IMG/VR virus record: IMGVR_UViG_3300047320_000132
Coordinates: 67,101 to 131,100 of that record
Source of the DNA: a virus
Taxonomy: Duplodnaviria > Heunggongvirae > Uroviricota > Caudoviricetes
Direction: 5' to 3' (one strand)
DNA length: 64,000 nt
The notes beneath the pieces were generated by a model that had not been told where the DNA came from, ran no database searches, and saw nothing but the letters and a program-made list of their open reading frames with translations. Both the position numbers and the translations under genes were made by a program. Positions within the stretch are counted from its first letter, which is position 1, and each line of letters opens with the position of its first letter. Positions 26,099 through 40,151 of this stretch are shown here, one piece after another.

Positions 26099-26106
26099 TT
26101 ATTTGT

Positions 26107-26182: not shown

Positions 26183-26193
26183 GTGTATTTTAC

Positions 26194-26284
26194 GGAAGAT
26201 TGGCAGAGTCCGGCTTATTGCACTAGTCTTGAAAACTAGCAACCACTTGACGGTGGTTCATCCGTCCAAATCGGATATCTTCCT
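26194..26284 (+). tRNA. tRNA-Ser (TGA)
   Basis: Perfect 7-bp acceptor GGAAGAT/ATCTTCC. Anticodon stem CTAGT/ACTAG, loop CTTGAAA. Long variable arm. T-loop TCCAAAT, with C rather than U at position 55. Confidence 0.7.
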
Positions 26285-26294
26285 AAAGTACATT

Positions 26295-26369
26295 GTCACA
26301 TTCGACTATCGACTAGGTCAACACCCTTTCACGGTGTAGAGATGGGTTTGATTCCCATATGTGACTCCA
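26295..26369 (+). tRNA. tRNA-Glu (TTC), non-canonical D- and T-loops
   Basis: Acceptor GTCACAT/ATGTGAC. Anticodon stem ACACC/GGTGT, loop CTTTCAC. The D-loop has no GG and the T-loop is TTTGATT with no C56. The same paired deviation appears in the Asp and Pro tRNAs. Confidence 0.55.
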
Positions 26370-26373
26370 GAAT

Positions 26374-26460
26374 AGAAACTTGGGGGAGTGGATTAACCCA
26401 GCACCCTGCTAAGGTGCCAGCTCTTATTAGGGCTCATCCGTCCGAATCGGATAGTTTCTG
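26374..26460 (+). tRNA. tRNA-Ser (GCT)
   Basis: Perfect acceptor AGAAACT/AGTTTCT. Anticodon stem GCACC/GGTGC, loop CTGCTAA. Long variable arm. T-loop TCCGAAT. Confidence 0.7.
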
Positions 26461-26462
26461 AG

Positions 26463-27017
26463 TTAATCGATTTTTAATTTGAAGTGTTTGACGACCTCTA
26501 CACATAGTTGTTGAAATTCTTCTAATGACAAATCGCCTTTAGCAACGTTGGCTGCTTTGCAAGCAAAATTGCAGTTTTCTAAAGTCCCCGGTCCACCTTT
26601 AGATCTAGGGACAATATGATCTAGATGATATTCTGACGTTTTGTGTAGATCTATATCTCTTCCCGTAAGGTAACACTTACCAGTAAATTTGGAGAGAAGG
26701 TCTTCCCAATTAAAAGAATCCGGAGTAAGCCTGGTTACTTGTCTACCTTTAGAGTCTTTAGTTTGAAAATCTCTAATTTTATCGTGGACTGGTTTTTTAA
26801 CTTGACCGCTTGCAGCGATAAATCGTTCCTTCTTTTGAAGAAGAGGATTATTCTTACGGAGTTCTTTGGTGCGATCTCTTACTTTTTGTTTTTGCCCATC
26901 ACCCAAGTGATAGGATATGGTAGCCTTAGAGCAATTAAGCTGTTTTTTAATTTCTGAGTATGAAGCGCCCTGCTCTCTCAGTGATTTGATTTGTTGTTCA
27001 AGAGTTGTATTTAACAT
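26463..27017 (-). CDS. HNH homing endonuclease with N-terminal HTH, inside the tRNA cluster
   Basis: 184 aa. HLDHIVPRSKGG...NCNFACKAAN is an HNH motif. The N-terminal helix-turn-helix resembles sigma region 4. It is the only credible - strand gene in the window. Confidence 0.75.
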   Translation of the reverse strand: MLNTTLEQQIKSLREQGASYSEIKKQLNCSKATISYHLGDGQKQKVRDRTKELRKNNPLLQKKERFIAASGQVKKPVHDKIRDFQTKDSKGRQVTRLTPDSFNWEDLLSKFTGKCYLTGRDIDLHKTSEYHLDHIVPRSKGGPGTLENCNFACKAANVAKGDLSLEEFQQLCVEVVKHFKLKID

Positions 27018-27080
27018 AGTTCGAATCCTTAATATGAATTATAAAAGATTCGAACCTTAAATGCAAATAGTTATTAATAC

Positions 27081-27165
27081 CGGTGTGTGGGTGAGTGGTT
27101 AAAACCAGCAGACTGTAAATCTGCCGCCTCTGGCTTCGATAGTTCGAATCTATCCGCACCGACCA
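27081..27165 (+). tRNA. tRNA-Tyr (GTA)
   Basis: Acceptor CGGTGTG/CGCACCG. Anticodon stem GCAGA/TCTGC, loop CTGTAAA. Long variable arm, as in bacterial Tyr tRNAs. T-arm GATAG-TTCGAAT-CTATC. CCA encoded. Confidence 0.75.
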
Positions 27166-27179
27166 AACAGAGAAGAATT

Positions 27180-27362
27180 ATGTCTTCTAAAACAACGCAG
27201 TACAAGGACATGGTCCTGTCTACCAACACAGATCTTTTCAAAGCAGTTCAGGACGGTGAAACTGAAAAAGCTGCGCAGATGTACAAAGATCTGAACGACG
27301 CCTTCTATAAAGCTAACCCTGGGTGGAAGCCCTATCCTTCGAAGGTGAAACATGTCGCATAA
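27180..27362 (+). CDS. hypothetical small protein
   Basis: 61 aa from the internal Met. The upstream part of the track ORF overlaps tRNA-Tyr. Confidence 0.3.
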   Translation: MSSKTTQYKDMVLSTNTDLFKAVQDGETEKAAQMYKDLNDAFYKANPGWKPYPSKVKHVA

Positions 27363-27735
27363 ACAAGTTATCGTAATGCGCAAAGACCTTGGAATGCGCA
27401 AAGGGAAAATGATTGCTCAAGGTGCGCATGCAAGTCTTGCGGCGATTCTGAGTCAGATGCGAGAATACATCCACGACACTCTTGAGTTGCAGATGGATGA
27501 AAGAACCAAGCCTTGGCTCACAGGCAACTTCAAAAAAGTGTGTGTATATGTAAATTCCGAAGAGGAACTACTCGCACTCTATGCAAAGGCAAAAGCTTCT
27601 GGCATAATCACTGCATTGATTACAGACTCAGGTCTGACAGAATTTCACGGTGTCCCGACCAATACCTGCATCGCAGTTGGTCCGGATTTTGAAGATAAGA
27701 TAGATACGGTGACCGGTGGGTTGCCACTTCTATAG
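27352..27735 (+). CDS. pth2: Peptidyl-tRNA hydrolase, PTH2 family
   Basis: 127 aa. VIVMRKDLGMRKGKMIAQGAHAS...FKKVCVYVNSEEEL...ITDSGLTEFHGVPTNTCIAVGP matches the PTH2 signature along its whole length. Confidence 0.8.
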   Translation: MSHKQVIVMRKDLGMRKGKMIAQGAHASLAAILSQMREYIHDTLELQMDERTKPWLTGNFKKVCVYVNSEEELLALYAKAKASGIITALITDSGLTEFHGVPTNTCIAVGPDFEDKIDTVTGGLPLL

Positions 27736-27747
27736 AGGAAATGTATA

Positions 27748-28020
27748 ATGAGTTTTATCCAAACAGTTGAAGACGACGTTAAAGCAGTAGTCGCAAAGAT
27801 TGAAGGTCTGTTCCACAGCAAGACTGCTGAAGAGATCAAGACCGAGCTTGAAGCAGAGGTCAAGAAGATTCAAGACGCTGCTGAAGCAAAGATCGAAGCG
27901 CTTCGTGCAAAGATTCAGCCGAAGATTGACGCAAAGCTTGCCGAAATTAAAACGGATGTTGCAGCAGCAGTTTCGACAGCAGTTGCAGATGGCGTAAAGA
28001 GCGCAATCGAAAAGGCTTAA
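27748..28020 (+). CDS. hypothetical coiled-coil protein rich in Ala, Lys and Glu
   Basis: 90 aa of amphipathic helix repeats. Confidence 0.45.
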   Translation: MSFIQTVEDDVKAVVAKIEGLFHSKTAEEIKTELEAEVKKIQDAAEAKIEALRAKIQPKIDAKLAEIKTDVAAAVSTAVADGVKSAIEKA

Positions 28021-28029
28021 AGTTTCAAT

Positions 28030-28106
28030 GTCGGGATAGCCAAATTGGTTAAGGCCTTCGCCTGCAAAGCGAAAGATTGAGAGTTCGAGTCCCTCTCCCG
28101 ACTCCA
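28030..28106 (+). tRNA. tRNA-Cys (GCA)
   Basis: Acceptor GTCGGGA/TCCCGAC. Anticodon stem TTCGC/GCGAA, loop CTGCAAA. T-loop TTCGAGT. CCA encoded. Confidence 0.7.
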
Positions 28107-28155
28107 GTTATAACAGGTCCCGCTGCTACCTGATAAAGAAAGCAGCCCAAACACT

Positions 28156-28230
28156 GGCTCCATCGTATAGTGATTATTACACTCCCCTGTCCAGGGAGAT
28201 ATCGGAGTTTGATTCTCCGTGGGGTCGCCA
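28156..28230 (+). tRNA. tRNA-Asp (GTC), non-canonical D- and T-loops
   Basis: Anticodon stem CTCCC/GGGAG, loop CTGTCCA. T-arm CGGAG-TTTGATT-CTCCG. The D-loop lacks GG. CCA encoded. Confidence 0.6.
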
Positions 28231-28702
28231 ATACAGTAGAAGCACCATGTCTGAACTGAGTTTGAAGGATCACGTTAAAGGATCCGTAGTTTTGAAAAGT
28301 ATCACAAAGGTAATCTTTGGTATACTACTTCGTCTGGACTTGAGTTTCCGGTTCCGATTTCAGATACTGGTGATGCTGAGTTTCATATCTCTGATAAAGC
28401 GCTGTTATTCATGCGCTGGATTAGAAAGCACCTAGATGAAATTGCAAAAGCAAAGCAAGAGCAAGAAGTAAGCATTGGTTAAAAGAACCTCCTCCGTTAG
28501 GTTGCGCAGTGCCCCATATGGATCGCTCCCTCGTAAATGGGAAACGTCAGGCCCGAGTGACGTAAATTCTCGGCATCCCAATTCTAGACGCTGAGCGTTA
28601 AAGCTCACTGCCAGAAGTTAAACAGACATCCCGTGTGGGGATTAGATCTGCGGGGGTATGGCCGTTACGACCTGGACAATGTCGCTAAACTTTTGTCCAC
28701 AC

Positions 28703-28780
28703 GCCCGTATAGCTCAGTTGGTAGTAGCACTCGCCTTGTAAGCGAGAGGTCACTGGTTCGAATCCTAGTTACGGGCACCA
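28703..28780 (+). tRNA. tRNA-Thr (TGT)
   Basis: Perfect acceptor GCCCGTA/TACGGGC. Anticodon stem CTCGC/GCGAG, loop CTTGTAA. The T-arm register is ambiguous (one extra nt or one mismatch). Confidence 0.6.
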
Positions 28781-28787
28781 GTATTTC

Positions 28788-28863
28788 CCCCAGGTAGCTC
28801 AGTTGGTAGAGCGGCATGTTGAAGCCTTGCGCGTCGGAGGTTCGAGTCCTTCTCTGGGGACCA
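28788..28863 (+). tRNA. tRNA-Phe (GAA)
   Basis: 76 nt with standard numbering. Anticodon loop TTGAAGC. T-arm GGAGG-TTCGAGT-CCTTC. CCA encoded. Confidence 0.65.
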
Positions 28864-28873
28864 GTTTAACAAT

Positions 28874-28951
28874 CGCGGAGTAGAGCAGCCCGGTAGCTCA
28901 GCAGGCTCATAACCTGAAGGTCGGTGGGTTCAAATCCCCCCTCCGCAACCA
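28874..28951 (+). tRNA. initiator-like tRNA-fMet (CAT) with C1-A72 mismatch
   Basis: CGCGGAGTAGAGCAGCCCGGTAGCTC...GGCTCATAACC...TTCAAATCC...CTCCGCAACCA is very close to E. coli tRNA-fMet and includes the unpaired C1-A72 end that marks initiator tRNAs. Confidence 0.7.
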
Positions 28952-28956
28952 AACAA

Positions 28957-29032
28957 CGGAACTTAGCTCAGTTGGTAGAGCCTCGGATTTACATTCCGAA
29001 TGTCACAGGTTCGACCCCTGTAGTTCCGACCA
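28957..29032 (+). tRNA. tRNA-Val (TAC)
   Basis: Perfect acceptor CGGAACT/AGTTCCG. Canonical D-arm. Anticodon stem TCGGA/TCCGA, loop TTTACAT. CCA encoded. Confidence 0.75.
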
Positions 29033-29049
29033 TTAATAACGAGGTAGAC

Positions 29050-29256
29050 ATGGCAACCGATAGTAAAGAAATCGTTCGTGTATTCCGCAGTTACAAAAAA
29101 GAGAATGGTTGGCCGATGGCTCACGAAGCTGCTAACCTAATCGAGAAGTTAGAGAAAGAAGTAGCAGATTTGAAGATTGGTATTGAAGTTCTCTGCAAAC
29201 AACTAGGTGAAGCTAATCATAATCACCTTGCATATCTAGTCGATCAACTTAAATAG
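29050..29256 (+). CDS. hypothetical protein
   Basis: 69 aa from the Met after tRNA-Val. The longer track ORF overlaps three tRNAs. Ends with TAG. Confidence 0.4.
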   Translation: MATDSKEIVRVFRSYKKENGWPMAHEAANLIEKLEKEVADLKIGIEVLCKQLGEANHNHLAYLVDQLK

Positions 29257-29261
29257 ATTTA

Positions 29262-29339
29262 CCCTGCTTAGCTCATGTCTGGTAGAGCACTCGACCGATA
29301 ATCGAGAGGTGCCTGGATCGTCGCCAGGAGCAGGGACCA
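29262..29339 (+). tRNA. tRNA-Ile (GAT)
   Basis: Perfect acceptor CCCTGCT/AGCAGGG. Anticodon stem CTCGA/TCGAG, loop CCGATAA, with C at position 33. T-loop ATCGTCG is unusual. CCA encoded. Confidence 0.65.
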
Positions 29340-29475
29340 AACAAAGCAATATGAACCACCTAGAAGAAGAAGCAGCCTGGTGTAGAGCGCAGCTTAAAGA
29401 AATGGTTGGAGACAGGTTGTACAAGTGTAGTTGCTGGATTTTGCATACAGACGAATGTGAAAGAAGGAACAAAGA

Positions 29476-29718
29476 ATGTTTGATCGATCAGAACGCAGAC
29501 ACCACGTCGAAAGGTTAAAAGAAACACGCAAAGCATACGGTTGGCGTAAAGAACCGTTGACACCCAGGCAACTCGGTGCAGTAGTACAACATCCGCAGAT
29601 GTGTTCCTGCTCTGGGTGTGGAAATCCTCGTAGACACAAGTGGTTTAAGAGCGAGTGTTTAACTCTTCAGGAACGTTCACAATTAGAAGCTCTTAAAACT
29701 TACGAGTTTGAAGGGTAA
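29476..29718 (+). CDS. hypothetical basic Cys-containing protein
   Basis: 80 aa with a CSCSGC motif. Confidence 0.35.
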   Translation: MFDRSERRHHVERLKETRKAYGWRKEPLTPRQLGAVVQHPQMCSCSGCGNPRRHKWFKSECLTLQERSQLEALKTYEFEG

Positions 29719-29728
29719 TTTCAACAGT

Positions 29729-29806
29729 CCGAGTGTAGGCTAGCCAGATTAAGTCGTCTGCTTTGGGAGCAGAAAATCGCAGGTTTGAATCCTGCCACTC
29801 GGACCA
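29729..29806 (+). tRNA. tRNA-Pro (TGG), non-canonical D- and T-loops
   Basis: Acceptor CCGAGTG/CACTCGG. Anticodon stem TCTGC/GCAGA, loop TTTGGGA. T-arm GCAGG-TTTGAAT-CCTGC. The D-loop lacks GG. CCA encoded. Confidence 0.6.
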
Positions 29807-29817
29807 CTCTTTTCACT

Positions 29818-30033
29818 ATGACAACCCTATATCAAATCAAGCTTGTTGTGGATCGTGTTTATCCTGAATACAAAGCCAATAGTGGTTTCATCGATAGTCT
29901 TGACGTCGTAGAAATCGTAATGGCTGTAGAAGATCAACTCAACGTTCAATTCGACGATTACAAACTTGAGAAGTTTCAGGCCGATACTCCGCTGGCGGAT
30001 ATTCCTGAAATTCTTTACGGAGCATTGGTTTAA
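29818..30033 (+). CDS. acpP: Acyl carrier protein
   Basis: 72 aa. SGFIDSLDVVEIVMAVEDQLNVQFDD carries the DSL phosphopantetheine-attachment serine in the usual helix-II context. Start moved to the Met after tRNA-Pro. Confidence 0.6.
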   Translation: MTTLYQIKLVVDRVYPEYKANSGFIDSLDVVEIVMAVEDQLNVQFDDYKLEKFQADTPLADIPEILYGALV

Positions 30034-30090
30034 TGTTTAACGACGCATACTTTCACAATTGGCATAGTAGACCATATAGAGGAAACTACT

Positions 30091-30492
30091 ATGTCACGCA
30101 CTTATCGCCGTCAAAAGGGTTACGTTCCTAAATACGTTATCGATGCGACTGAGCCTCTCAAAGGCCCGGATGCAGAAGACGCTGAACGTCTGACCGATCC
30201 CAAGAACTTCTACCGTGGAAAAATCCCCGGTTGGTACAAGGGTTACGCAAAGGTTAACGGGCAGTGGTTCCGCTACGGAACTAACAAAGCTTTCGGTCAG
30301 CAAATGGCTTTCTGGTTCGGGGATCACGGCTACGCCTGGCGTCGTCTCTACGGAAAGGACACTTGCAAATTTGTCCGAGGGCACACCCAGGTCCAGTACC
30401 GTATGGATGCCAAGTTGGAACTCGACAAGTACCGCAAGAACCCTGATTACGAAGTACAAATTCCCCGCAAGAATCTCTTGCCGTGGGACTGA
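30091..30492 (+). CDS. hypothetical protein
   Basis: 133 aa rich in aromatic and basic residues. Confidence 0.45.
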   Translation: MSRTYRRQKGYVPKYVIDATEPLKGPDAEDAERLTDPKNFYRGKIPGWYKGYAKVNGQWFRYGTNKAFGQQMAFWFGDHGYAWRRLYGKDTCKFVRGHTQVQYRMDAKLELDKYRKNPDYEVQIPRKNLLPWD

Positions 30493-30494
30493 AC

Positions 30495-30525
30495 AACGCC
30501 CAGCTTAGGCTGGGCTTTTTATTTG
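30495..30525 (+). terminator. intrinsic terminator
   Basis: GCCCAGCTTAGGCTGGGC hairpin followed by TTTTTATTT. Confidence 0.6.
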
Positions 30526-30533
30526 GAGAAATC

Positions 30534-31148
30534 ATGAGCTGGAGCATCGCCCTGCTTGAGAATACTGTCGAAGTTTCTGCAAAGATTGCGGAAGAGTTAG
30601 TTAAGGCCCAAAGCTATAAGGGAGAATTCTGGAGCAACGGATTTGAAGTAACTTACAAGGGTAAGCTTTACTTCAACCCCGATCACTCCGAACACATGGA
30701 CTTTTTAACAGACGAAAAGTTACTGGAAGTACTGACGAAGAACAAGGTTGAAGGCAGGATCTGTTTCGCTTCGCTTGAAGGCGACAACAGAGGTGAATTT
30801 TGGGGCTATGAATTTGATGGCAAAGGCGCAGTGCATGCGCTTGTAGGCTCCCTTGTATTTCAGCGTAAAATTGTCGAGCCGGAAATCCAATTTCCAAAAG
30901 AATACGTCCTGGTTAAAACCTCACGAGTATACTACGGTGGTCCAGTCCGAGAACCACACCTACCGGTTACCTCTTTGGACGTGGCTATAGCCCTTGCACG
31001 GGGCTCGGTTAATCCAGTTGGGTACGATGTATATGAACTGGTTCCCCGAGGCACTGAAGCCCTGCATCCAGTTTGGAGATATGCCGATCGTGCTTCATAT
31101 AAACAGGCAGTAGATCAGATTGACCCCCTTCATGACGGAGTTGAGTAA
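30534..31148 (+). CDS. hypothetical protein
   Basis: About 204 aa. Start moved to the Met with the GGAGAA RBS, because the track start overlaps a terminator hairpin at 30495-30522. Confidence 0.5.
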   Translation: MSWSIALLENTVEVSAKIAEELVKAQSYKGEFWSNGFEVTYKGKLYFNPDHSEHMDFLTDEKLLEVLTKNKVEGRICFASLEGDNRGEFWGYEFDGKGAVHALVGSLVFQRKIVEPEIQFPKEYVLVKTSRVYYGGPVREPHLPVTSLDVAIALARGSVNPVGYDVYELVPRGTEALHPVWRYADRASYKQAVDQIDPLHDGVE

Positions 31149-31324
31149 TGGAAGTCAAAGTTCAACTTACAACAGAAGAAGTAAAACAGGCTATTAAGAA
31201 TTACGTGAATACACAAGGAATGAGCCTCTCTGTTAAAGAAATACAATTCGGGGACAGAGGTGAAGCTACTGTTACTTGTGAAAAGGCGAAGCACCCAACT
31301 GGTTTTGGAGCATACGATCGATGA
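31148..31324 (+). CDS. hypothetical small protein
   Basis: About 58 aa (MEVKVQLTTEEVKQAIKNYV...). ATGA overlap with the previous gene. Below the ORF-track length cut-off. Confidence 0.3.
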   Translation: MEVKVQLTTEEVKQAIKNYVNTQGMSLSVKEIQFGDRGEATVTCEKAKHPTGFGAYDR

Positions 31325-31424
31325 GCTGGCCTGAAGCTTTCGCAACAGTAGGATGCGCATTTGCGTTCGTAGCGTTTATCTGGATCTTGACACGCTAACT
31401 GTGTTTTATTAAACTAGCAGTATT

Positions 31425-31500
31425 GGGAATATAGCTCAGTTGGCAGAGCAGCGGATTCTAAATCTGAAGGTCTCGGGTTCGAGCCCCGATGTTCCTACCA
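31425..31500 (+). tRNA. tRNA with CUA anticodon (amber suppressor-type). Amino acid identity unresolved.
   Basis: A 76-nt canonical cloverleaf. Acceptor GGGAATA/TGTTCCT. D-arm GCTC-AGTTGGCA-GAGC. Anticodon stem GCGGA/TCTGA, loop TTCTAAA, so positions 34-36 are CTA. Short variable arm. T-arm TCGGG-TTCGAGC-CCCGA. A73. CCA encoded. Confidence 0.55.
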
Positions 31501-31614
31501 AACATTTAAAGGAATTACCATGAAGCTCGATAAGCTCTAGGTTACGAAGCCTCCGTAAGACAACCTTACCTAAAAGCACCGTAGTACCTACACTTTTACT
31601 TAAGGAAATTAATC

Positions 31615-31938
31615 ATGTCTTACATTTATTCAATCATTCGCAAAGATATTCCCCTCGCAGATCAGATCGTTCAGACTGCGCATTCCGCATTTCACGCTGG
31701 CCAAGCCGATCCGAAAAACGGTGCGGCATTAGATTGTGAAATCCCTTCGCTGGTCCTCTTGCAGGTGCCAAACGAAGAAGCCTTGCTTGAGCTTCACAAA
31801 AAACTTAAGGCTGCAGGCATCGTTCACAGCACGTTCCACGAGCCTGACGATGACATGGGTTGGACGTCGATCACGACCGTGTCTATTAATCAGGAAGATC
31901 GTAAGCTCTTTAGTAATTTGCCTTTGTGGAGACCCTAA
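31615..31938 (+). CDS. divergent PTH2-like peptidyl-tRNA hydrolase candidate
   Basis: 107 aa. The N-terminus IYSIIRKDIPLADQIVQTAHSAFHAG parallels the PTH2 motif (vvRxDLxMxxGKxaAQxxHA). The rest of the protein is divergent. Confidence 0.4.
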   Translation: MSYIYSIIRKDIPLADQIVQTAHSAFHAGQADPKNGAALDCEIPSLVLLQVPNEEALLELHKKLKAAGIVHSTFHEPDDDMGWTSITTVSINQEDRKLFSNLPLWRP

Positions 31939-32166
31939 ATGAACGATAGGATTCTTATCTTCTACAATAAGGCGCATAACACTGATACCTCAATACCGCC
32001 GTGGGTCTGCCAATCTAAAGGTCAGACATACAATGTTAATCATATTACAATCGGAAGTGGCATTGGCTTCTCGACCAAGGAGAGGCCCGACCACTCTAGT
32101 ACCAAGGCGTGTCTCGTTGTTAAAGGTACGTTGACGATCAAGGATGGTGAGGCGTTGATAAATTAA
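31939..32166 (+). CDS. hypothetical protein
   Basis: 75 aa. Confidence 0.3.
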   Translation: MNDRILIFYNKAHNTDTSIPPWVCQSKGQTYNVNHITIGSGIGFSTKERPDHSSTKACLVVKGTLTIKDGEALIN

Positions 32167-32212
32167 TCTTTACAACTTTTCTTTAGATGTATGTTTAGAG
32201 TAAAATAGAAAT

Positions 32213-32758
32213 ATGAACTCTGACATACTTCAACCCTTGATAGATATGGGATTGACAGCCAAAGAAATGAGTGAACATCTTGGCTGTTCAATTCATAAAG
32301 TAAAGTACTACATGAAAAAACTGGGTATTAAAACCCAGCTTGCCCAAAAGTACGATTCATACGTTTCGTATGAACAATTAAAAACTAAAATTTGCCGCTC
32401 TTGCAAATTAGAAAAATCTGTTTTTGAATTTAGAAAAGTTGTTATATCTGGTAAAGAAAAACCCGGCTCTTATTGCAAAGCGTGTGTAAAGCAACAAAAC
32501 TATGCAGCTAAAAATAGTATTAAAAAACAGGCCTTAGATTATAAAGGTAATAAATGCCAGTGTTGCGGATACGACAAATATGAAGGCGCTTTAGAATTTC
32601 ATCATTTAGATCCTAAAGAAAAAGACTTTCTTATTTCTAGATACGGACGAGACGCTACTTTAAATGACAAAGATTTATTTACAGAATTAGATAAATGTGC
32701 TTTACTGTGTTCCAATTGTCACCGTGAGGTTCATGCAGGACTCATTAAACTAGATTGA
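32213..32758 (+). CDS. HNH homing endonuclease with N-terminal HTH, paralog of the gene at 41978
   Basis: 181 aa. GNKCQCCGYDKYEGALEFHHLDPKEKDF...LLCSNCHREVH is near-identical in its C-terminal half to the 41978 protein. Confidence 0.75.
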   Translation: MNSDILQPLIDMGLTAKEMSEHLGCSIHKVKYYMKKLGIKTQLAQKYDSYVSYEQLKTKICRSCKLEKSVFEFRKVVISGKEKPGSYCKACVKQQNYAAKNSIKKQALDYKGNKCQCCGYDKYEGALEFHHLDPKEKDFLISRYGRDATLNDKDLFTELDKCALLCSNCHREVHAGLIKLD

Positions 32759-32760
32759 GT

Positions 32761-32770
32761 TTGGTATAAG
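32761..32770 (+). promoter_or_regulatory. TTGGTATAAG promoter motif upstream of the tRNA-like elements and the AAA+ gene
   Basis: TTGGTATAAGAGAATTGTG. Confidence 0.45.
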
Positions 32771-32798
32771 AGAATTGTGAAAGAACATTTCTTTTATA

Positions 32799-32868
32799 AA
32801 CAAAATAGCTCAATTGGTAGAGCGCACATACTCTTGTGAGGCTGGGGGCTCGTATCCCCCTTTTGTTA
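32799..32868 (+). ncRNA. tRNA-like element (pseudo-tRNA?) with canonical acceptor and D-arm but a defective anticodon arm
   Basis: Acceptor AACAAAA/TTTTGTT. D-arm TA-GCTC-AATTGGTA-GAGC. T-arm GGGGG-CTCGTAT-CCCCC. The anticodon region does not form a standard 5-bp, 7-nt stem-loop. Lies 28 nt downstream of a TTGGTATAAG promoter. Confidence 0.35.
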
Positions 32869-32884
32869 GCTTAGTAAACTTCTT

Positions 32885-32968
32885 GGGCGTGACACCGTGC
32901 GCTGGCAGGTAACGGCCTCATAAGCCGTCGGAGAAATCCCATCGTGGGTTGGAATCCCACCGCGCCCA
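32885..32968 (+). ncRNA. tRNA-like element with CAT anticodon loop, long variable arm and an over-extended terminal stem
   Basis: Acceptor GGGCGTG/CGCGCCC. Anticodon stem ACGGC/GCCGT, loop CTCATAA. 15-nt variable arm. T-arm GTGGG-TTGGAAT-CCCAC. The terminal helix extends to 13 bp (AACTTCTTGGGCG/CGCCCAAGAAGTT), which is not tRNA-like. Confidence 0.35.
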
Positions 32969-33052
32969 AGAAGTTTATTGAGAAGCTTTATAACCACCCC
33001 TCTGAAGTCTAGAGGGGTTTTTCTTTGCAGCACTTTTTGTAGCCTAATCGAT

Positions 33053-35116
33053 ATGGAAACGAAGGAAATCAACGTGAGTGACATTCAAGAACAAATCGCG
33101 GAATCGAATGCAGGCGCTGCTATTGGCGAAGTTGCCAAGGCTGATGTACCCGCTGTCGCTCCGGAAGTCGCTGCGGCGGCTGCACAAGCTGCAATGATCG
33201 CAGAAGTGGTCAAGGCTGCTCTCGAAAACGCCGGTCTTGGCAAGACGGATCCGATCGCAGAAATCGCGGCGATCTCGATCAGCAGCGACGAAATGCCTGT
33301 CGCTTCCCGTCCGATTGCAGAAGTGATTCCGGGCCGTACTGGACAGATCAAGGTTTATGTTCCGTATGACATTCGTGCGGACATGAACAACTATGGTCGT
33401 GTCATCGGCAGCCGTATGAACACGTCCACGAACGAGTTCAACTACATCAACAACCCGGCACAGTTCAACGTTGCTCGTGGCGCGGGTATGGTTGGCGGTC
33501 TGGAAATCTTCAAGAACCGTTCGAACATCGAATCGTACCTGAACAACCTGGACGACTACAACGACGATCAGGACTTCATCGAACGTGTTCGTTCGCAGAT
33601 GACCCGTATCCTCGAAGAAGTGAATGCGTTCTACGCAAACACTCTCGGCAATATCAGCAATCTGTCGGTCAACAACGAGTTCACGTATGACGAACTCGCC
33701 GTTCTCCTGGCTCAGCCTGGCATCAAGCTGGTTGTCGAAGACGACTTCGCCCTGGTTTGTGTTACGACTCACGCTGCAAGTCAGCAGATGAGCATGAGCG
33801 GCCCGTACATCGCTGCAGCTGGGCATATGTACGCACGTAACGGTCAGGAAATTCAGCAATTCACGCATCAGTACTACTTCGGTGGTTACGACGGCAAGAA
33901 GAGCCTGAAGGAACTGGGCATCACGCCGTTGGAATCGGATGCTGAACTCAAAGCCCGTCTCCTCGCTCGTGGCAAGCGCGGTGTCGAAGTTACGGCTTCG
34001 TCGTCGTACATGCAGTACAAGGGCGATCTGGTTCGTCGCGGCTACTGGAGCAACACGGCTTTCCGTTCGACGGGTCGTGTCATGATCGACTTCCAGGCAA
34101 TGCGTATCATGGATCCGAACTACCGCAAGTTCTTTGGCGGAACTCAGGATCGTGACTCGTACGGCTACACGGCCAAGGCTGAAACGGTGAAGCTGAGCGA
34201 TGACGTGTATCTGACGTTCTCGCCGTATGTTTATGGCTTCTCGTTCCTGTCGAAGGTCTGGGGTGAAATGCTGGTCGACAACATCACTCCGATTCAGTTC
34301 CGTACGGATGCTTACGGCAAGCTGGTGATGGACGAAGATCAGAAGGAAATGATCGTGTCGCTGGTGGAAACCCAGCTGGAAGGCAAGAAGGTCGACATCA
34401 TCGATGGCAAGGGTGGTGGCACGATTTTCCTGCTGGCCGGTGAACCGGGTACTGGCAAGACGCTTACTGCTGAAGTTACGGCAGAGCATCTGAAGCGTCC
34501 GCTGTACATGGTTGGCGTTGGCGAACTCGGGACGAGTGCCAGCGAGCTGGAAGACAATCTGCGTCAGGTTCTGGATATCGCCGCGACGTGGAATGCAGTG
34601 CTCCTGCTTGACGAATGCGACATCTTCATGGAAGCCCGTACGGATAGCAATATCCAACGGAATGCTATGGTCGGTGTTTTCCTGCGTCTGCTGGAATACT
34701 ATCAAGGCGTTCTGTTCCTGACGTCGAACCGTGCAAGCAACATCGACAAGGCGTTCTACTCCCGTATCAGCATGGCGATTAACTTCCCTGCGCTGACTAC
34801 TGGTGACCGTGTTCAAATTTGGGAGAACAACCTCAATATGAATTCGGTGCAACTCACCGCGACGGAAATTCTTTACCTTGCCGAAACCTACGAGATCAAT
34901 GGTCGTCAGATCAAGACGGCTACTCGCAACGCTTCGGCTCTGGCACTGAAAGGCAAGCGTCCGACGGACATCAAGGACTTCCAACTGATCCTCAACAAGG
35001 GTCTGGAATTCCAGAAGGCGGTGTTCGAACGTGGTGGCAAAAACGACATGACGTTGCTGGGCATGCACAAGGATGCTCACGTCGTTGCTGACGTCGAGTT
35101 CAAAGACGTTAAGTAA
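33053..35116 (+). CDS. Large AAA+ ATPase with an approximately 450-aa N-terminal domain of unknown function
   Basis: Walker A GEPGTGKTLTA. Walker B VLLLDECDIF. Sensor-1 LFLTSNRASNID. Arg finger region FYSRIS. Codons are visibly GC-rich compared with the flanking genes. Start moved to METKEIN. Confidence 0.75.
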   Translation: METKEINVSDIQEQIAESNAGAAIGEVAKADVPAVAPEVAAAAAQAAMIAEVVKAALENAGLGKTDPIAEIAAISISSDEMPVASRPIAEVIPGRTGQIKVYVPYDIRADMNNYGRVIGSRMNTSTNEFNYINNPAQFNVARGAGMVGGLEIFKNRSNIESYLNNLDDYNDDQDFIERVRSQMTRILEEVNAFYANTLGNISNLSVNNEFTYDELAVLLAQPGIKLVVEDDFALVCVTTHAASQQMSMSGPYIAAAGHMYARNGQEIQQFTHQYYFGGYDGKKSLKELGITPLESDAELKARLLARGKRGVEVTASSSYMQYKGDLVRRGYWSNTAFRSTGRVMIDFQAMRIMDPNYRKFFGGTQDRDSYGYTAKAETVKLSDDVYLTFSPYVYGFSFLSKVWGEMLVDNITPIQFRTDAYGKLVMDEDQKEMIVSLVETQLEGKKVDIIDGKGGGTIFLLAGEPGTGKTLTAEVTAEHLKRPLYMVGVGELGTSASELEDNLRQVLDIAATWNAVLLLDECDIFMEARTDSNIQRNAMVGVFLRLLEYYQGVLFLTSNRASNIDKAFYSRISMAINFPALTTGDRVQIWENNLNMNSVQLTATEILYLAETYEINGRQIKTATRNASALALKGKRPTDIKDFQLILNKGLEFQKAVFERGGKNDMTLLGMHKDAHVVADVEFKDVK

Positions 35117-35150
35117 TCTGTAACGAAGGCCGGGCTTAGTCCCGGCTTTC
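35117..35150 (+). terminator. terminator-like hairpin after the AAA+ gene
   Basis: GCCGGGCTTAGTCCCGGC followed by TTTCTCT, a weak T-run. Confidence 0.4.
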
Positions 35151-35165
35151 TCTCGGGAGAATACA

Positions 35166-35546
35166 ATGAGTAAAGTACTGAAAAAGTTGAAGGCTATTCG
35201 CCGTCTGGTCAAGAACATTCCGGGCAAGAACATCGACTTGGACAAGTTTGTTACGACGAATGGGGCTACATACACAGACTCTGTGATGTGCCCTGCGGCC
35301 TGGATCACAACCGACGTGTTCGTTGGTAAAGGCCTGTATCTCGTCGAAGACGAGCACGGACTGTGGAAAATTACCTATAGGTCCAAAGACAACTTCGAAG
35401 CCCTGGCTGAATTTCTGGGTGTTTCAGAAAACGAAGCTGGTGATCTGTTCGGCCCGGTTTTCCACAATGAAGCGTGGGGAGGGTATCTCTCTCACAAAAA
35501 GCTCTTCCTTCAACGTATCGATAACCTGATCGAGGCGTACAAATAA
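35166..35546 (+). CDS. hypothetical protein
   Basis: 126 aa. Starts after a terminator-like hairpin at 35117-35150. Confidence 0.45.
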   Translation: MSKVLKKLKAIRRLVKNIPGKNIDLDKFVTTNGATYTDSVMCPAAWITTDVFVGKGLYLVEDEHGLWKITYRSKDNFEALAEFLGVSENEAGDLFGPVFHNEAWGGYLSHKKLFLQRIDNLIEAYK

Positions 35547-36028
35547 TGGATCCGATTGAAAGACTAAAGCAACTGGAAGCTGAACTCGCTGCTGTGAAAC
35601 TGCAGATCGCCGCTGAAGCTCGGGCTCCTGGCTTTAAGAAGGCAGCGGCGGGGGATACGTATCATCGGATCTATCAAGACTTCGACGGTTCGTTCAAAAC
35701 CTCCGCAAACACTGGCGCTCCTGCGTTTTCGCGTCGTCCTCTGTTTGGTAACAAAACCCAGGCAATGGACTTTGCGAATGCAATCCAGACCATTCTGGAA
35801 ATGCGTATACAGCCTGGCATGATGGTTCCGGAACCTCATGAAACTTCGGTGGTTGTAATTCCGCAGCGCAATGGTACAATCAAGTACCAGTCCAGCAAAT
35901 GTACGGACGCAATTCCGTCGACTATCTACGCTCGTTTCAAGACAGTCGAAGCTGCAAAGGCAGCAGTCGCTGCAGTTGGCGAAACGCGTGTCATTGCAGC
36001 AGCAAAGACGCTGGCATTTTTCAAATAA
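35546..36028 (+). CDS. hypothetical protein (N-terminal coiled coil, Ala-rich)
   Basis: 160 aa. ATGG overlap with the previous gene. Confidence 0.45.
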   Translation: MDPIERLKQLEAELAAVKLQIAAEARAPGFKKAAAGDTYHRIYQDFDGSFKTSANTGAPAFSRRPLFGNKTQAMDFANAIQTILEMRIQPGMMVPEPHETSVVVIPQRNGTIKYQSSKCTDAIPSTIYARFKTVEAAKAAVAAVGETRVIAAAKTLAFFK

Positions 36029-36034
36029 CAAACC

Positions 36035-36235
36035 ATGAAGAAAATCGCAGCAGTTGCCTACGGGATTTTGGCAACGCTCTATCTGTTGTTCCTGCTGTTG
36101 CCCGTAACACAGCAGTTGGTTAATAATGGAGGCGACCTGATTTACTTCGTGCCGCTGCTGTGGTTGACCATCCCGCTAATCGCCTTTGGCGGTTGGTATT
36201 TCTTCCTCAAACCAAAGAAACAAAAAACACAATGA
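36035..36235 (+). CDS. small membrane protein
   Basis: 66 aa with two TM helices. ATGA overlap with the SPFH gene. Confidence 0.4.
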   Translation: MKKIAAVAYGILATLYLLFLLLPVTQQLVNNGGDLIYFVPLLWLTIPLIAFGGWYFFLKPKKQKTQ

Positions 36236-37077
36236 AGAAACTTCTTCTTATCGTCGTTGTATTCATGCTCGGTGCCTGTACCAAGGTTGGCGCAGGCTTC
36301 GTCGGTGTTCAGGTGGATAACTACGGCAGTGACCGTGGCGTCCAGAACAAGGTTCTCGGCCCGGGTTCGTACTTCACCGGCTGGAACACGACTGTGTACG
36401 AGTATCCGACGTTCACGGAAAACTACGTGTACAGCAAGGCTCCGGAAGAAGGTCATCCGGCCGACGAGTCGATCACGTTCCAGGCAAAGGGTGGCGTTGC
36501 CATCAATGCTGACTTCGGTGTTGCGTATCACATCGCTGCAGACAGTGCTCCGCTTGTGTTCCAGAAGTACCACAAGGATCTGAACGGTATTACCGACGGT
36601 CCTTTGCGTAACCTTATCCGTGACAGTCTTAACGAAATCGCGGGTAAGCTTACCTTCGAGCAGATCAGCAATGACATTCCGGCCTTCATGGTTGCTGTTA
36701 ACGCTGAACTCGCCAAGCGTGCAGCACCTAGCGGGTTGTCGGTTGAACTGCTCTCGAACGTAGGCGCATTCCGTTGGCCTCCTGCGATTCAGGATTCCAT
36801 CAATGCTCAGCAACAGGCAAAGATGGACGCTATCACGTCGCAGAACCAGCTGCAGAAAACCCAGGCAGATGCTGCAAAGCGTATTGCCAATTCGGATGCC
36901 GACCTGAAGATCGCTGCAAACGAAGCACAAGCTACGGCTATTCGTGGTCAGGCACTGGCCAAGAACCCGGAGATTCTGCAACAAATGTGGATCGAAAAGT
37001 GGAACGGTCAACTTCCGACGTATCAACTCGGCAGTGGCAGTTCGGCTCTTATCCAGCTTCCGAAAATGGGTAACTGA
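36232..37077 (+). CDS. SPFH/band-7 (prohibitin/HflKC-like) lipoprotein
   Basis: Lipoprotein signal MKKLLLIVVVFMLGAC. SPFH core around ITFQAKGGVAINADFGVAYHI. A C-terminal coiled-coil Q/A-rich region is typical of flotillin/HflK-like proteins. Confidence 0.7.
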   Translation: MKKLLLIVVVFMLGACTKVGAGFVGVQVDNYGSDRGVQNKVLGPGSYFTGWNTTVYEYPTFTENYVYSKAPEEGHPADESITFQAKGGVAINADFGVAYHIAADSAPLVFQKYHKDLNGITDGPLRNLIRDSLNEIAGKLTFEQISNDIPAFMVAVNAELAKRAAPSGLSVELLSNVGAFRWPPAIQDSINAQQQAKMDAITSQNQLQKTQADAAKRIANSDADLKIAANEAQATAIRGQALAKNPEILQQMWIEKWNGQLPTYQLGSGSSALIQLPKMGN

Positions 37078-37079
37078 TC

Positions 37080-37256
37080 ATGTTAGGCTTACTTGCTTTC
37101 GTAGCTGCAAAATGTGTTGAACGATACATTGGTCTCGATGATGCGGGCAGAGAAGACGTAAATGAAGGTCTTAAGGAACTCAAGGATATGGTCGTGGGTT
37201 CTGACGAAAGTAAGAAGCCTGATCCTGAACCGTGGCCGTTTCCTCGCAGTAAGTAG
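37080..37256 (+). CDS. hypothetical small membrane-anchored protein
   Basis: 58 aa, directly after the SPFH gene. Below the track cut-off. Confidence 0.3.
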   Translation: MLGLLAFVAAKCVERYIGLDDAGREDVNEGLKELKDMVVGSDESKKPDPEPWPFPRSK

Positions 37257-37590
37257 TTTCAAGTTTCTCTTAACGACTTGGTATAAGTACATTACGGAAC
37301 ACCTATAATTTAGTTGTTCCGTTCTTCTTCAGGTGAAACCGTGTTTCTTCCTAAAGTCATCCGTGACCTTTTCCGCATTGATACGAATCCAGTCGTTTCG
37401 ATCGATGAGGAACAAATTCCGAAAACCTGTGCAGAACATCGCAGCAGAGTGATTCTGGACAATCAGTCAGCAGCACCAGTACTGGTACACTACCGAAAGC
37501 AACGTCGAGTAGTGTCGCAGCAATTGTAGTACTTTGTTTTTCCCTTCCCAAACTCGCTGAAGTTTTCGCATATAAATGGAGAGTATTCAA

Positions 37591-37998
37591 ATGGCAGACA
37601 ATCGCCAAACCAAGACCAACACCCAAGGCAAGAAGCCTTTCAACAAGGCCGGTGCGAACAAAGCTGAGATCCAGACGTTCATCGATGGTCACAAGCGCAC
37701 CGAAGTTAACCCGAAGACCGGCGAAACGAAGATTTTCTGGAAGGAAATGCTCGTCACTCCGGAAACGCACAGCCGTCCCCGTGTCGGCAAGACTGCTCGT
37801 GACGCAGCTAACGGCGCGGCTCGCCGTAACTACGAGAACAAGCAAAGCCGTGCAAGCTGGATGAACGACAGCAAGCGTACGGCGGCAAACTTCCCGTACA
37901 ATTCGTGCAACGGCAAGCGTAACCGCACTGTCGTCACCGGCAAGGGCAACGAACGTATTACCCTGACGTACAAGATGGCTGGCGGTCGGGGTAAGTAA
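37591..37998 (+). CDS. hypothetical highly basic protein (nucleic-acid binding?)
   Basis: 135 aa, very rich in Lys, Arg and Asn. Confidence 0.45.
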   Translation: MADNRQTKTNTQGKKPFNKAGANKAEIQTFIDGHKRTEVNPKTGETKIFWKEMLVTPETHSRPRVGKTARDAANGAARRNYENKQSRASWMNDSKRTAANFPYNSCNGKRNRTVVTGKGNERITLTYKMAGGRGK

Positions 37999-38124
37999 CA
38001 TGAAACCCATGCACGGTATTGCTCTAATCCTGGCATTCGCCATCGGCGGTACCGTGCTTGGATGGAGTCTGGGCGAAGGCGCTTCGTGGCTCATCGTTAA
38101 ACAAATATCAAACCGGAGTTGTAA

Positions 38125-38331
38125 ATGAAGAAAGTTTGGATCATCCGTGGCACGAACGGCGAACACTCGCATGAAGTCAAAGAAGAACTGAAGAAGGTTC
38201 GTGATCAGTTGAACAAGGAAGCAGGCTTCGATCTGAACAAGGCAATCGCCGATAACGATGGAAACATCGGCAAAGCAACGGCACTGATGCCCTTCAAGAT
38301 CAGGAAGGGTCCGGATCATCCCCGTCTGTAA
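38125..38331 (+). CDS. hypothetical protein
   Basis: 68 aa. Confidence 0.4.
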   Translation: MKKVWIIRGTNGEHSHEVKEELKKVRDQLNKEAGFDLNKAIADNDGNIGKATALMPFKIRKGPDHPRL

Positions 38332-38402
38332 CAACTGAAGTAAACGTACTGGAACTGGCTTAGGCTGGTTCCAGTTCCTTAACTCTAAACCTTTCTTTTT
38401 GT

Positions 38403-38606
38403 ATGAGCATGAATCAATGTGATGGTTGCAGGGCAAAGATCCCCCTTAAGAAAACAGCCTTAGGAGGAGAACTTCACAAAGGTGACGACTACAACAGCAC
38501 ATTCGGTTGCGATGCGTATCGTTATACAGAAGCTTTTAACGAGGAGTTTCAAAATGGATTTGAGCGAAGCCTTGAAATTTGCAGAAGAATGCAAGAAGAA
38601 CGGTAA
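38403..38606 (+). CDS. hypothetical small Cys-rich protein
   Basis: 67 aa. CDGCRAK...FGCDAY. Confidence 0.3.
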   Translation: MSMNQCDGCRAKIPLKKTALGGELHKGDDYNSTFGCDAYRYTEAFNEEFQNGFERSLEICRRMQEER

Positions 38607-38674
38607 CATCAGCACGTCAGCTAAGGCAGCCATTGCTTTGGCTGATGAAGTTAAACGGCTAAGAGAAGAAGAGA

Positions 38675-39205
38675 ATGAAAGAAGAGCGTCAGACACCTTT
38701 GGTTTCGATTAACCCTAAAGACCTACGCATCGACTGTTATGGCGGTGCCGTAGGTGGTCAAAGAGTAGGAATGGCTAATGGTGTGAGAATCACGCACATC
38801 CCTAGCGGTATTGTGACCGAATGCATTACAGAACGCAGTCAACACAAGAACAGAAACGCGGCCTTGAAAGAACTCGAAGAGCTAGTCTATGTGTGGGAAG
38901 GTTCCAAAGTATCGGAGCCTCATCCTGACGATTTCGCAGTAGACAAGTTCGCAGCCATGATGAAAGCGAAGCTTGCAAAGTCTCGTGAGAAGGGTAGAAG
39001 CGGTTGGGATGATCCAGAACAATGCAGTACAAAACGATTAGCGAATCTTCTTGTCAGCCATGTCCCCAAAGGGGATCCCGTAGACATTGCAAATCTGGCA
39101 ATGATGCTGGCGCTAAGAGAAGCCGACCCGGCATTGCTAAAAGACGCCTTTGAAGGCGAAGCTATGGCCATGATGGAACGGGAAGGCTGGTCTTCTGGAG
39201 GCTAA
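38675..39205 (+). CDS. GGQ-motif peptidyl-tRNA hydrolase domain protein (class I release factor-like; ArfB/PrfH-like)
   Basis: 176 aa. [48 protein letters not shown] is the RF-1 catalytic domain signature (GGQ plus the ERSQ..N block). The C-terminal half is unrelated. Confidence 0.65.
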
Positions 39206-39229: not shown

Positions 39230-39384
39230 GAGAGTTGTATAAGAAGTAGCCTTTAATTCTGCATCTCTCTTTTTTGGTTGGTCAAAATGCGTCGCCGTAA
39301 TACCCTTAAATTCGCAGGCTACGTCATGTGTGTCGTAGTTGGATTCACCTGCGTTCTACTAACAGCAAAACTCGGAGTAACGAA

Positions 39385-39801
39385 ATGAACAACGAAATCA
39401 AACAGGAATGGATCTCTGCTCTGCGTAGCGGCGAATACAAACAAGCCAAACATGTCTTGAACGGTGACGGCGGCATGTGTTGTCTTGGCGTTCTCTGTGA
39501 TCTTTACATGAAGAAAACTGGAGAAGGTGAATGGGTGCCGAGAACCGCTAAGGAGGAAGATAGCAGGGTTTTGCAAAAGTATACTTCCATTGGTACATTT
39601 GAAGGGTCAGAAGTTGTACCTCCTGCTAGTGTTATGAAATGGGCCGATCTCGACAAGGAAAATCCCAATACTGGAATTTACCAGGGATTTACAAAGTCCT
39701 TTGAAGATACCCCTGGCTACTTGGGGTATTCTTTGGCCGAACTCAACGACGGTGGGCTTACCTTCAACCAGATTGCTGACGTTATTCAATTCACGCTATG
39801 A
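39385..39801 (+). CDS. tandem paralog 1 of a five-gene family of short acidic proteins
   Basis: Conserved N-terminus MNNEIKQEWISALRSGEYKQ...GMCCLGVLCDLY and conserved C-terminus LNDGGLTFNQIADVIQ, with a variable middle. Preceded by a 33-aa membrane mini-ORF with an ATGA overlap. Confidence 0.6.
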   Translation: MNNEIKQEWISALRSGEYKQAKHVLNGDGGMCCLGVLCDLYMKKTGEGEWVPRTAKEEDSRVLQKYTSIGTFEGSEVVPPASVMKWADLDKENPNTGIYQGFTKSFEDTPGYLGYSLAELNDGGLTFNQIADVIQFTL

Positions 39802-40151
39802 ACCAAGAAATCAAAGCAAAGTGGGTAGCTGCGCTTCGCAGCGGTGAGTACAAACAGAGCGTCGGCTACTTGAAAAGAGACGATGGGTTCTGTTGCCTCG
39901 GAGTCCTTTCCGATGTTCACGCAAAGGAAGGAGGTCCGCAATGGGAACATGCTGGCTCTGGGATTCAAGAGGTTGAACGCTGTGGGGGGTATCCCCCTCA
40001 AGTAACTCTTAATTGGGCTGAATTCGCAGAAACTTCTCTCGTTCCTGGTTTGCTTACCAGAGAAGGGGATGGGGAAGGCTTGGTAAGCCTGAACGACTCC
40101 GGTGAATTCACCTTTTCTCAAATCGCTGACGTTATCGAGTACTTCTTCTAA
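39798..40151 (+). CDS. tandem paralog 2
   Basis: MNQEIKAKWVAALRSGEYKQ...GFCCLGVLSDVH...LNDSGEFTFSQIADVIEYFF. ATGA overlap. Confidence 0.6.
   Translation: MNQEIKAKWVAALRSGEYKQSVGYLKRDDGFCCLGVLSDVHAKEGGPQWEHAGSGIQEVERCGGYPPQVTLNWAEFAETSLVPGLLTREGDGEGLVSLNDSGEFTFSQIADVIEYFF

Follow-up and report, generated by a model that had tools for sequence, protein, structure and literature searches.

A suppressor tRNA paired with a divergent Pth2-fold gene in a large phage and in Chloroflexota: a possible control circuit for nonsense suppression

Do three genes for translation-related proteins, encoded within 12 kb of a phage genome, serve a single function? The question is raised by a stretch of 64,000 nucleotides (nt), hereafter the window, which covers positions 67,101 to 131,100 of IMG/VR virus record IMGVR_UViG_3300047320_000132 (Caudoviricetes). 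An earlier note on this DNA placed an unambiguous Pth2 peptidyl-tRNA hydrolase at 27352, a divergent second Pth2-like protein at 31615 beside a tRNA gene with anticodon CUA, and at 38675 a protein with the GGQ domain of class I release factors, and read them as an arsenal for the rescue of ribosomes and peptidyl-tRNAs. All three are open reading frames (ORFs) on the + strand and contain the peptides that the note quoted. Our own reading, held tentatively and with slightly less than even confidence, is that the stretch combines an ordinary Pth2, a module composed of tRNA-CUA and gene 31615, and a fusion protein built on a release-factor domain, and not three versions of one function.

The tRNA-CUA gene at 31425 and gene 31615 are shown by comparison of their sequences across loci to behave as a conserved two-part module, which turns up again in phages that are only distantly related and in genomes of Chloroflexota. 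This pair of a suppressor tRNA and a Pth2-fold protein is apparently undescribed: keyword searches of the literature, with most subscription journals outside their scope, returned no description of it. The features concerned are as follows (aa, amino acids).

31425-31500, + strand: amber-suppressor tRNA with anticodon CUA, loop UUCUAAA, A73 and an encoded CCA (ARAGORN; Rfam tRNA, 60.3 bits).
31615-31938, + strand: Pth2-fold protein of 107 aa from a distinct family, its gene starting 115 nt 3' of tRNA-CUA.
31939-32166, + strand: ORF of 75 aa that begins on the base right after the stop codon of the Pth2-like gene.

A census of genome, viral and metagenome collections yielded 51 distinct loci, 39 of which had enough flanking sequence to be informative. 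A suppressor tRNA gene on the same strand lies beside the Pth2-like gene in 33 of these 39 (28 CUA and 5 UCA), counts that overstate independence because the loci are related by descent. The adjacent tRNA is a stop-codon suppressor in all 33 cases and never a sense tRNA, and one further locus holds a degenerate copy. The first distant relatives found (46-48% identity) lie in one integrase-bearing island and one plain bacterial chromosomal region, where tRNA-CUA is the sole tRNA in 12 kb of each. Similarly, in five loci from Chloroflexota genomes and in most non-phage metagenome loci the suppressor, located 554-610 nt upstream, is the only tRNA found. The Chloroflexota modules, which lie in ordinary chromosomal contexts, have the gene order tRNA-CUA, ORF X, Pth2-like gene. 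ORF X (about 150 aa, MNTLSRAITA...FTPxTNxxKLxNG) is always located between the other two in loci L013-L018 and L036-L068 of the census (e.g., L014 2520-2981), and divergent copies occur in L024, L025, and L027; it matched nothing in Pfam or PDB, and no homolog was found in the phage lineage of the window.

In 28 loci, which take in most copies of the bacterial type, the reading frame of the Pth2-like gene consists of an ATG or GTG start, three sense codons, a TAG, one to eight variable codons, and then the conserved domain. The start codon of this interrupted frame is preceded by a Shine-Dalgarno sequence, and the stop codon of ORF X overlaps nt 6-8 of the frame. In 25 of 27 loci, no canonical start codon occurs after the TAG and before the first conserved β-strand. 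The base that follows the TAG is U in only one of the 28, U after a stop codon being the strongest terminator context. Two additional loci carry the TAG at codon 3 or 4, and four others have a stop codon in mid-gene (TAG in L024, L025, and L034; TGA in L053), one of these TAGs standing where a near-identical protein has CAG (Gln). Because neither the TAG nor its spacing from the start changes, although the codons around it do, we conclude that synthesis of the full-length Pth2-like protein in the TAG-bearing organisms probably depends on the neighbouring suppressor tRNA. Separately, metagenome locus L049, whose Pth2-like gene is a near-copy of that of L036, carries two extra TAGs, at an L036 Tyr codon and at the L036 TAA stop, which suggests either decay or genuine TAG decoding in that organism.

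Could the two genes simply hitch-hike together in a mobile cassette with no functional coupling, the TAG being the nearest upstream stop or the end of a leader mini-ORF? It is true that tRNA genes are common integration sites, that L009 adjoins an integrase and a SocA-type antitoxin domain, and that shared ancestry keeps the counts from being independent. Chance linkage, however, does not predict that the adjacent tRNA would suppress a stop codon every time, nor that the stop would always be the TAG that matches CUA, exactly three codons past a start led by a Shine-Dalgarno sequence and amid variable flanks, with so few loci offering an alternative start. We regard this explanation as very improbable.

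What the protein of the module does can be approached from its family. Gene 31615 scores just under the threshold of the Pfam PTH2 profile (22.4 bits versus 23) and far lower against TIGR00283 (17.2 bits versus 82), and 24 of 40 relatives give a match at E < 0.1 (best 3.8e-6); the protein has the Pth2 fold. Its family comprises 47 proteins in a set of 5.8 billion, with R9, D11, A15, D16, Q17, Q20, H23, E76, P77, and D78 invariant and with an EPDD block that is new relative to Pth2. In the Pth2 of S. solfataricus, the lysine of the GK pair and an Asp are reported to be catalytic. Since both hhalign and HMMER align A15-D16 with this G-K pair, and D16 is invariant in 40 sequences, an Asp appears to stand in place of the catalytic lysine. 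Judged on these features, gene 31615 is not simply another Pth2. Its earlier description as a divergent second Pth2-like protein stands as far as the fold is concerned; as a Pth2 proper it fails on the profile cut-offs, on the change of the GK lysine to Asp, and on its tie to a suppressor tRNA instead of a rescue pathway. Directly 3' of it, the 75-aa ORF matched nothing in Pfam or PHROG searches and has a counterpart of 76 aa in the same position in L006, L007, and L011.

Pth2 enzymes act at the acceptor end of a tRNA, where they bind and sever the ester bond that holds the peptide. By way of a Pth2-type pocket for the tRNA 3' end that seems to have been rebuilt with Asp, His, and Glu, the 31615 protein may hydrolyse the ester of the suppressor tRNA. 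An enzyme that acts on this one 3' ester is the simplest reading because the Pth2 fold, the rebuilt acidic and His pocket, the linkage to a single tRNA, and the gene's own sensor codon all converge on it. The change from Lys to Asp could, we speculate, favour a free α-ammonium group and hence aminoacyl-tRNA over peptidyl-tRNA. Suppressor activity would then read through the TAG and switch on its own antagonist, a negative feedback that would cap suppression. We therefore propose, as a possibility that we rate somewhat below even, a novel circuit for the control of nonsense suppression in Chloroflexota and large phages, in which a suppressor tRNA would be paired with a tRNA-specific Pth2-fold enzyme of the Lys-to-Asp type and an amber sensor would be located at codon 5; the phage versions would be sensor-less and toggle between amber and opal.

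This toggling is evident in the tRNA itself. In sister phages, the orthologs of the tRNA at 31425 have the anticodon UCA (opal) and are 80-83% identical to it; the D, T, and acceptor arms are the same in CUA and UCA orthologs, whereas the whole anticodon stem-loop differs. The switch occurs even between phages whose Pth2-like proteins are 86% identical. Orthologous suppressor tRNAs in relatives are located as follows.

L006, 3159-3234.
L007, 2668-2743.
L029, 976-1051.
L030, 632-707.
L031, 1787-1861.

In the anticodon arm the UCA tRNAs seem, by eye, to resemble tRNA-Trp of E. coli. An attempt to read the amino-acid identity of the suppressor from paralogy was abandoned, as the tRNAs of the window include no close paralog (best Val, 78%). 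Because the cognate stop codon still ends genes, no recoding is seen in the early region: TAG terminates four of 33 genes in the window lineage, six to nine of about 35 genes end in TGA in the UCA-bearing sister phages, and no in-frame TAG was seen in the genes inspected in the window, which belong to that region. In the window lineage, which has lost the sensor codon and in which the anticodon alternates between CUA and UCA, the pair may be a constitutive device for dosed read-through.

The same observations bear on a second explanation, namely that the suppressor tRNA acts jointly with the Pth2-like protein and the truncated release-factor domain to increase read-through of one stop codon, for the benefit of late genes with in-frame stops outside the window, with a domain 3 lacking GGQ competing with RF1 and RF2. 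Suppressor tRNAs and release factors are known from the standard-code "code change modules" of recoded phages (bioRxiv 10.1101/2021.08.26.457843). The gene content of the window is confined to early, replication, and nucleotide-metabolism functions, including ribonucleotide reductase, ThyX, and NAD-salvage enzymes, so that the late genes lie elsewhere, and the mid-gene TAGs of L024 and L025 fall in the Pth2-like gene itself. Nevertheless, the continued use of the cognate stop as a terminator, an anticodon switch at 86% protein identity that is hard to square with fixed recoding, and the ordinary chromosomal setting of the Chloroflexota modules make a kit for code change distinctly unlikely in our view.

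The first of the three genes requires no such special reading.

27352-27735, + strand: Pth2 peptidyl-tRNA hydrolase of 127 aa with a TAG stop (Pfam PTH2 113.6 bits, cut-off 23; TIGR00283 106.6 bits, cut-off 82).

Its protein covers profile positions 2-115 of 115 and retains the GK-x-AAQ-x-HA and D-x-G-x-TE motifs. It matches the Pth2 structure 2zv3 in PDB over its full length (E = 7e-23), and its alignments to four archaeal Pth2 proteins of solved structure (2zv3, 1rzw, 1wn2, and 1rlk), in which K19 and D92 have matching counterparts, likewise run from one end to the other. Homologs occur in 33 GenBank phage records, mostly annotated as peptidyl-tRNA hydrolase. By sequence the gene is an unambiguous Pth2, as had been claimed, and an ordinary one for a large phage. 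Pth2 of jumbo phages has been proposed to clear peptidyl-tRNA when host nucleases jam translation and was grouped with RNA ligases, Thg1, and Ro60 (Iyer et al., PMC7824862). The most likely task of gene 27352 is the recycling of peptidyl-tRNA in a phage that supplies tRNAs and RNA-repair enzymes of its own. An ORF at 27748-28020 lies in the same frame, four codons past the Pth2 TAG, so that amber suppression would yield a fusion protein; a programmed read-through fusion was considered and dropped, the arrangement being probably coincidental because the gene order is not kept in relative L011.

The third gene encodes two domains.

38675-39205, + strand: two-domain fusion protein of 176 aa (Pfam RF-1 56.3 bits, cut-off 35, over aa 10-75).
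38702-38908, + strand: N-terminal class I release-factor domain 3, aa 10-78, with GGQ at aa 26-28 and ERSQHKNR at aa 53-60.
38912-39181, + strand: C-terminal four-helix domain, aa 80-169 (phrog_8298, 4e-21; HPDDxAVDxFAxxMKxKLxxxRxKGRxGWDxPxxC...HxxKGDPxDxANxxMM).

In alignment, the GGQ and ERSQHKNR blocks fall on RF2 residues 232-302, and in the predicted model the three strands and long helix typical of domain 3 are connected by a short linker to a distinct four-helix domain; profile (PF00472) and fold together confirm the N-terminus as the class I hydrolase domain that the earlier note had recognised there. The protein is not a release factor proper: at 176 aa it lacks PF03462 (PCRF), and its scores of about 59-60 bits against RF1 and RF2 are far under the prfA and prfB cut-offs (370-423). 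The suggested resemblance to ArfB and PrfH comes down to shortness, because the protein reaches only 14.4 bits against ArfB (NF006718, cut-off 100) and 20-32 bits against PrfH (31.7 bits for TIGR03072, cut-off 166.65) and is nearest to RF1/RF2 domain 3. Neither of the two observations that the note itself had named as damaging, the absence of the ERSQ/N block and the failure of the 31615 protein against every PTH2 profile, was made.

The fusion is rare (12 proteins at 90% clustering and about six to eight clusters at 50%), and its family has largely lost the catalytic motif. Motif states among 15 members are as follows.

GGQ: three members, the window phage included.
GFQ or GYQ: three members.
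GGM: one member.
Unrecognisable: eight members.

THxPxG, the RSQxxN block (ERSQxxN), and the helix are conserved throughout, and the GGQ-bearing copies carry RVGM where release factors carry HVN(K/R)T. In a sister phage, one member without GGQ is found at exactly the corresponding position, in the order AAA ATPase, SPFH protein, fusion gene, and tandem DUF8296 genes. Because GGQ is lost in 12 of 15 members, this syntenic ortholog among them, peptide release is probably not the conserved role of the family, although the copy of the window phage might retain hydrolytic activity. Retention of the domain-3 scaffold despite the loss of GGQ suggests instead that what the family conserves is, most probably, an ability to dock on the ribosome at the A site or in the peptidyl-transferase region.

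Conservation is much stronger in the C-terminal domain, which hardly varies, than in the N-terminal one. The C-terminal domain recurs with unrelated partners in phage and prophage proteins that number in the thousands (152 clusters at E < 1e-30). It had no sequence match in Pfam, NCBIfam, PADLOC, or PDB and matches no named family. Elsewhere it is fused to Lar, ASCH/DUF3850, DUF4406, R67-DHFR, and HTH domains, and reading its function from these partners was given up because they offered no coherent hint. The flanks of the fusion gene are also conserved: the AAA ATPase gene (about 700 aa, 32978-35116; best PADLOC match IetA at 62.6 bits, with a weak DUF7025 match) and the SPFH/Band-7 lipoprotein gene that follows it (36160-37077) are syntenic between the Pth2-like gene and the GGQ gene in every relative examined. 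Directly 3' of the GGQ gene, at 39328-41219, lie five tandem paralogs of 116-157 aa (DUF8296, phrog_18067, motif KWxxALRSGEYxQ...FCCLGVLCD), an array that is present in four to six copies at the same place in relatives.

Several points weigh against the reading of one ordinary Pth2, one suppressor module, and one docking fusion. Six of the 39 informative loci have no adjacent suppressor. The copy of the window phage has no in-frame stop, so that the regulatory argument reaches this phage by homology only. As for the residue inserted, two near-identical pairs give different answers, with Q opposite the TAG in one and Y in the other. For a Pth2 fold without the aligned GK lysine, hydrolase activity is an assumption, and sequence leaves the sign of the feedback free, as a helper role (e.g., recycling of the suppressor after drop-off) could make it positive. 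Finally, the window phage and two relatives retain GGQ, which is compatible with an active release function.

The last of these points leads back to the original proposal that all three proteins are enzymes of ribosome rescue and peptidyl-tRNA recycling, acting with RNA-repair genes against host nucleases or tRNA-corrupting toxins. It draws support from the company that the genes keep in the window.

6180-7019, + strand: Thg1-like tRNA 5'-end (3'-5') nucleotidyltransferase (Pfam Thg1 91.4 bits; phrog_4717 1.5e-66).
13857-15158, + strand: Hen1 (Pfam Hen1_N 171.6 bits).
15168-17591, + strand: Pnkp kinase-phosphatase-ligase (PNKP_ligase 80.8 bits, with Metallophos and an AAA_33 kinase domain).
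24351-32969, + strand: tRNA island with 19 ARAGORN tRNAs and one Rfam-only tRNA at 32799-32868, interspersed with HNH endonucleases and small ORFs.
58083-58553, + strand: YqeY/GatB-C-like protein (YqeY 46.6 bits, cut-off 27).
58555-58779, + strand: S4-like protein of 74 aa (S4 22.0 bits, cut-off 22.8).
61957-63579, + strand: Ro60/TROVE RNA-binding protein (vWA_Ro60 195.4 bits; TROVE 124.9 bits).

Given these tRNAs together with Thg1, Hen1, Pnkp, YqeY, and Ro60, the phage has clearly invested in RNA repair and translation support, and the three genes sit in or near its tRNA island. ARAGORN identified 22 tRNAs in the window and Rfam two more. Hen1 and the three-domain Pnkp are adjacent and constitute an RNA-repair pair. 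The earlier note had asked for RtcB, the usual partner of PrfH; none was found among window ORFs of at least 350 aa or in the 10 kb upstream, the downstream contig ending shortly past Ro60, and the RNA-ligase role is filled by the ligase domain of Pnkp together with Hen1. As for the two accessory proteins that the note had mentioned, YqeY is solid, while the S4-like assignment is marginal and found no match in a PDB sequence search.

An arsenal of this kind would fit the genuine Pth2, the GGQ that is intact in this phage, and the 22-24 tRNAs, Pnkp/Hen1, Thg1, Ro60, and YqeY of the window; a like argument for jumbo phages is already in print (PMC7824862), and Mycobacterium phage Phabba has both Pth2 and an "RF-1" domain protein. 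The other two genes do not conform to it. The Pth2-like protein is without the GK lysine and is tied to a suppressor even in bacterial genomes that lack nearby repair genes. GGQ is dispensable in most orthologs of the fusion, which lacks both a tail of the ArfB type and a domain 2 of the PrfH type, in a window without RtcB. Another member of the fusion family adjoins RdgC in an unrelated small phage-like contig, and because that contig has no tRNA context the fusion is not tied to a translation cluster. A rescue role for the whole set is thus unlikely, if less so than code change: the idea is supported in part, for the Pth2 at 27352 and for the general theme of RNA repair, and finds no support for genes 31615 and 38675.

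At about 130 kb the phage is below jumbo size, and the same or closely related proteins are found on contigs of 107-134 kb. Nearly all window genes are on the + strand. A DNA-level search of GenBank for a close phage relative gave tRNA matches only, and the nearest relatives by DNA polymerase are Salmonella phage Arash (49%) and Vibrio phages D69 and D181 (46%). This polymerase is apparently split between an ORF with UDG and 3'-5' exonuclease domains (7102-8361, ending in TAG) and a PolA-domain ORF (8976-10679), separated by a 212-aa ORF (8345-8983) that by its position may be a homing endonuclease; the only match of a 335-aa protein at 12174-13181 is a PHROG labelled "DNA polymerase". The Rfam-only tRNA-like genes missed by ARAGORN lie at 32799-32868 (49.5 bits) and 44885-44956 (37.9 bits), and in relatives L020, L031, L032, and L033 ARAGORN reports a "tRNA-???" with a two-base anticodon at the corresponding place. 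Two sub-threshold matches to YrlA, a Y RNA-like family (60462-60530 at 28.1 bits and 60886-60961 at 23.3 bits; gathering score 69), sit in an ORF-poor stretch just 5' of the Ro60 gene at 61957 and may be phage Y RNAs.

If the proposed circuit is true, the pair would represent a natural, self-limiting use of a suppressor tRNA that does not poison the cell, and would bear on how phages and bacteria tolerate or use stop-codon read-through and on the origins of code change. It would also add a new activity to the Pth2 fold and could offer synthetic genetic-code expansion a tunable "off-switch" for an orthogonal suppressor tRNA. The decay of GGQ suggests that phages reuse the release-factor domain as a ribosome-docking piece and not as an enzyme, which would alter the reading of phage "RF-1 domain" annotations.

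Among known systems, the 38675 protein is most like domain 3 of RF1 and RF2 (PF00472), which is its best match in sequence and fold and shares the strand-loop-strand-strand-helix layout, the GGQ, and the RSQHKN block. It differs from these factors in lacking the PCRF and codon-recognition domains, in carrying RVGM instead of HVNK/RT after GGQ, in the loss of GGQ from most orthologs, and in its foreign C-terminal domain. ArfB/ICT1 and PrfH are more distant: the protein is far under the cut-off of each, with no basic C-terminal tail in the first comparison and, in the second, no remnant of domain 2 and no RtcB partner in the stretch searched. Unlike mitochondrial mtRF-R (C12orf65), it has no adjacent S4-type partner. 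Stand-alone "RF-1 domain" proteins (phrog_20323 and phrog_3122) are annotated in many phages, among them Acinetobacter phage 133, Vibrio phage nt-1, Pseudomonas phage phiPsa347, and Mycobacterium phage Phabba. They are likewise phage-encoded domain-3 proteins, but they are single domains of 64-131 aa, whereas 38675 is fused to the HPDD...GW...DxAN helical module.

From Pth2 of the archaeal/eukaryotic type (PF01981; PDB 2zv3, 1wn2, and 1xty), which is also present in jumbo phages and mycobacteriophages, the 31615 protein differs by the invariant Asp in place of the GK lysine, the EPDD block, and the sub-threshold Pfam score; its linkage to a suppressor tRNA is not reported for Pth2 in the literature searched. 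No sequence-level relationship was detected to Atu0240 (PDB 2gax), which has a Pth2-like fold. In regulatory logic, the closest parallel is the autoregulation of prfB (RF2), in which ribosomes get past an early in-frame UGA by a +1 frameshift and RF2 abundance is what is sensed. Both are translation-factor genes with an early in-frame stop whose reading depends on the activity that is controlled, and the likeness is one of logic only: prfB senses RF2 through a +1 frameshift, whereas the module described here would use read-through by a dedicated neighbouring tRNA to make a product with a hydrolase fold.

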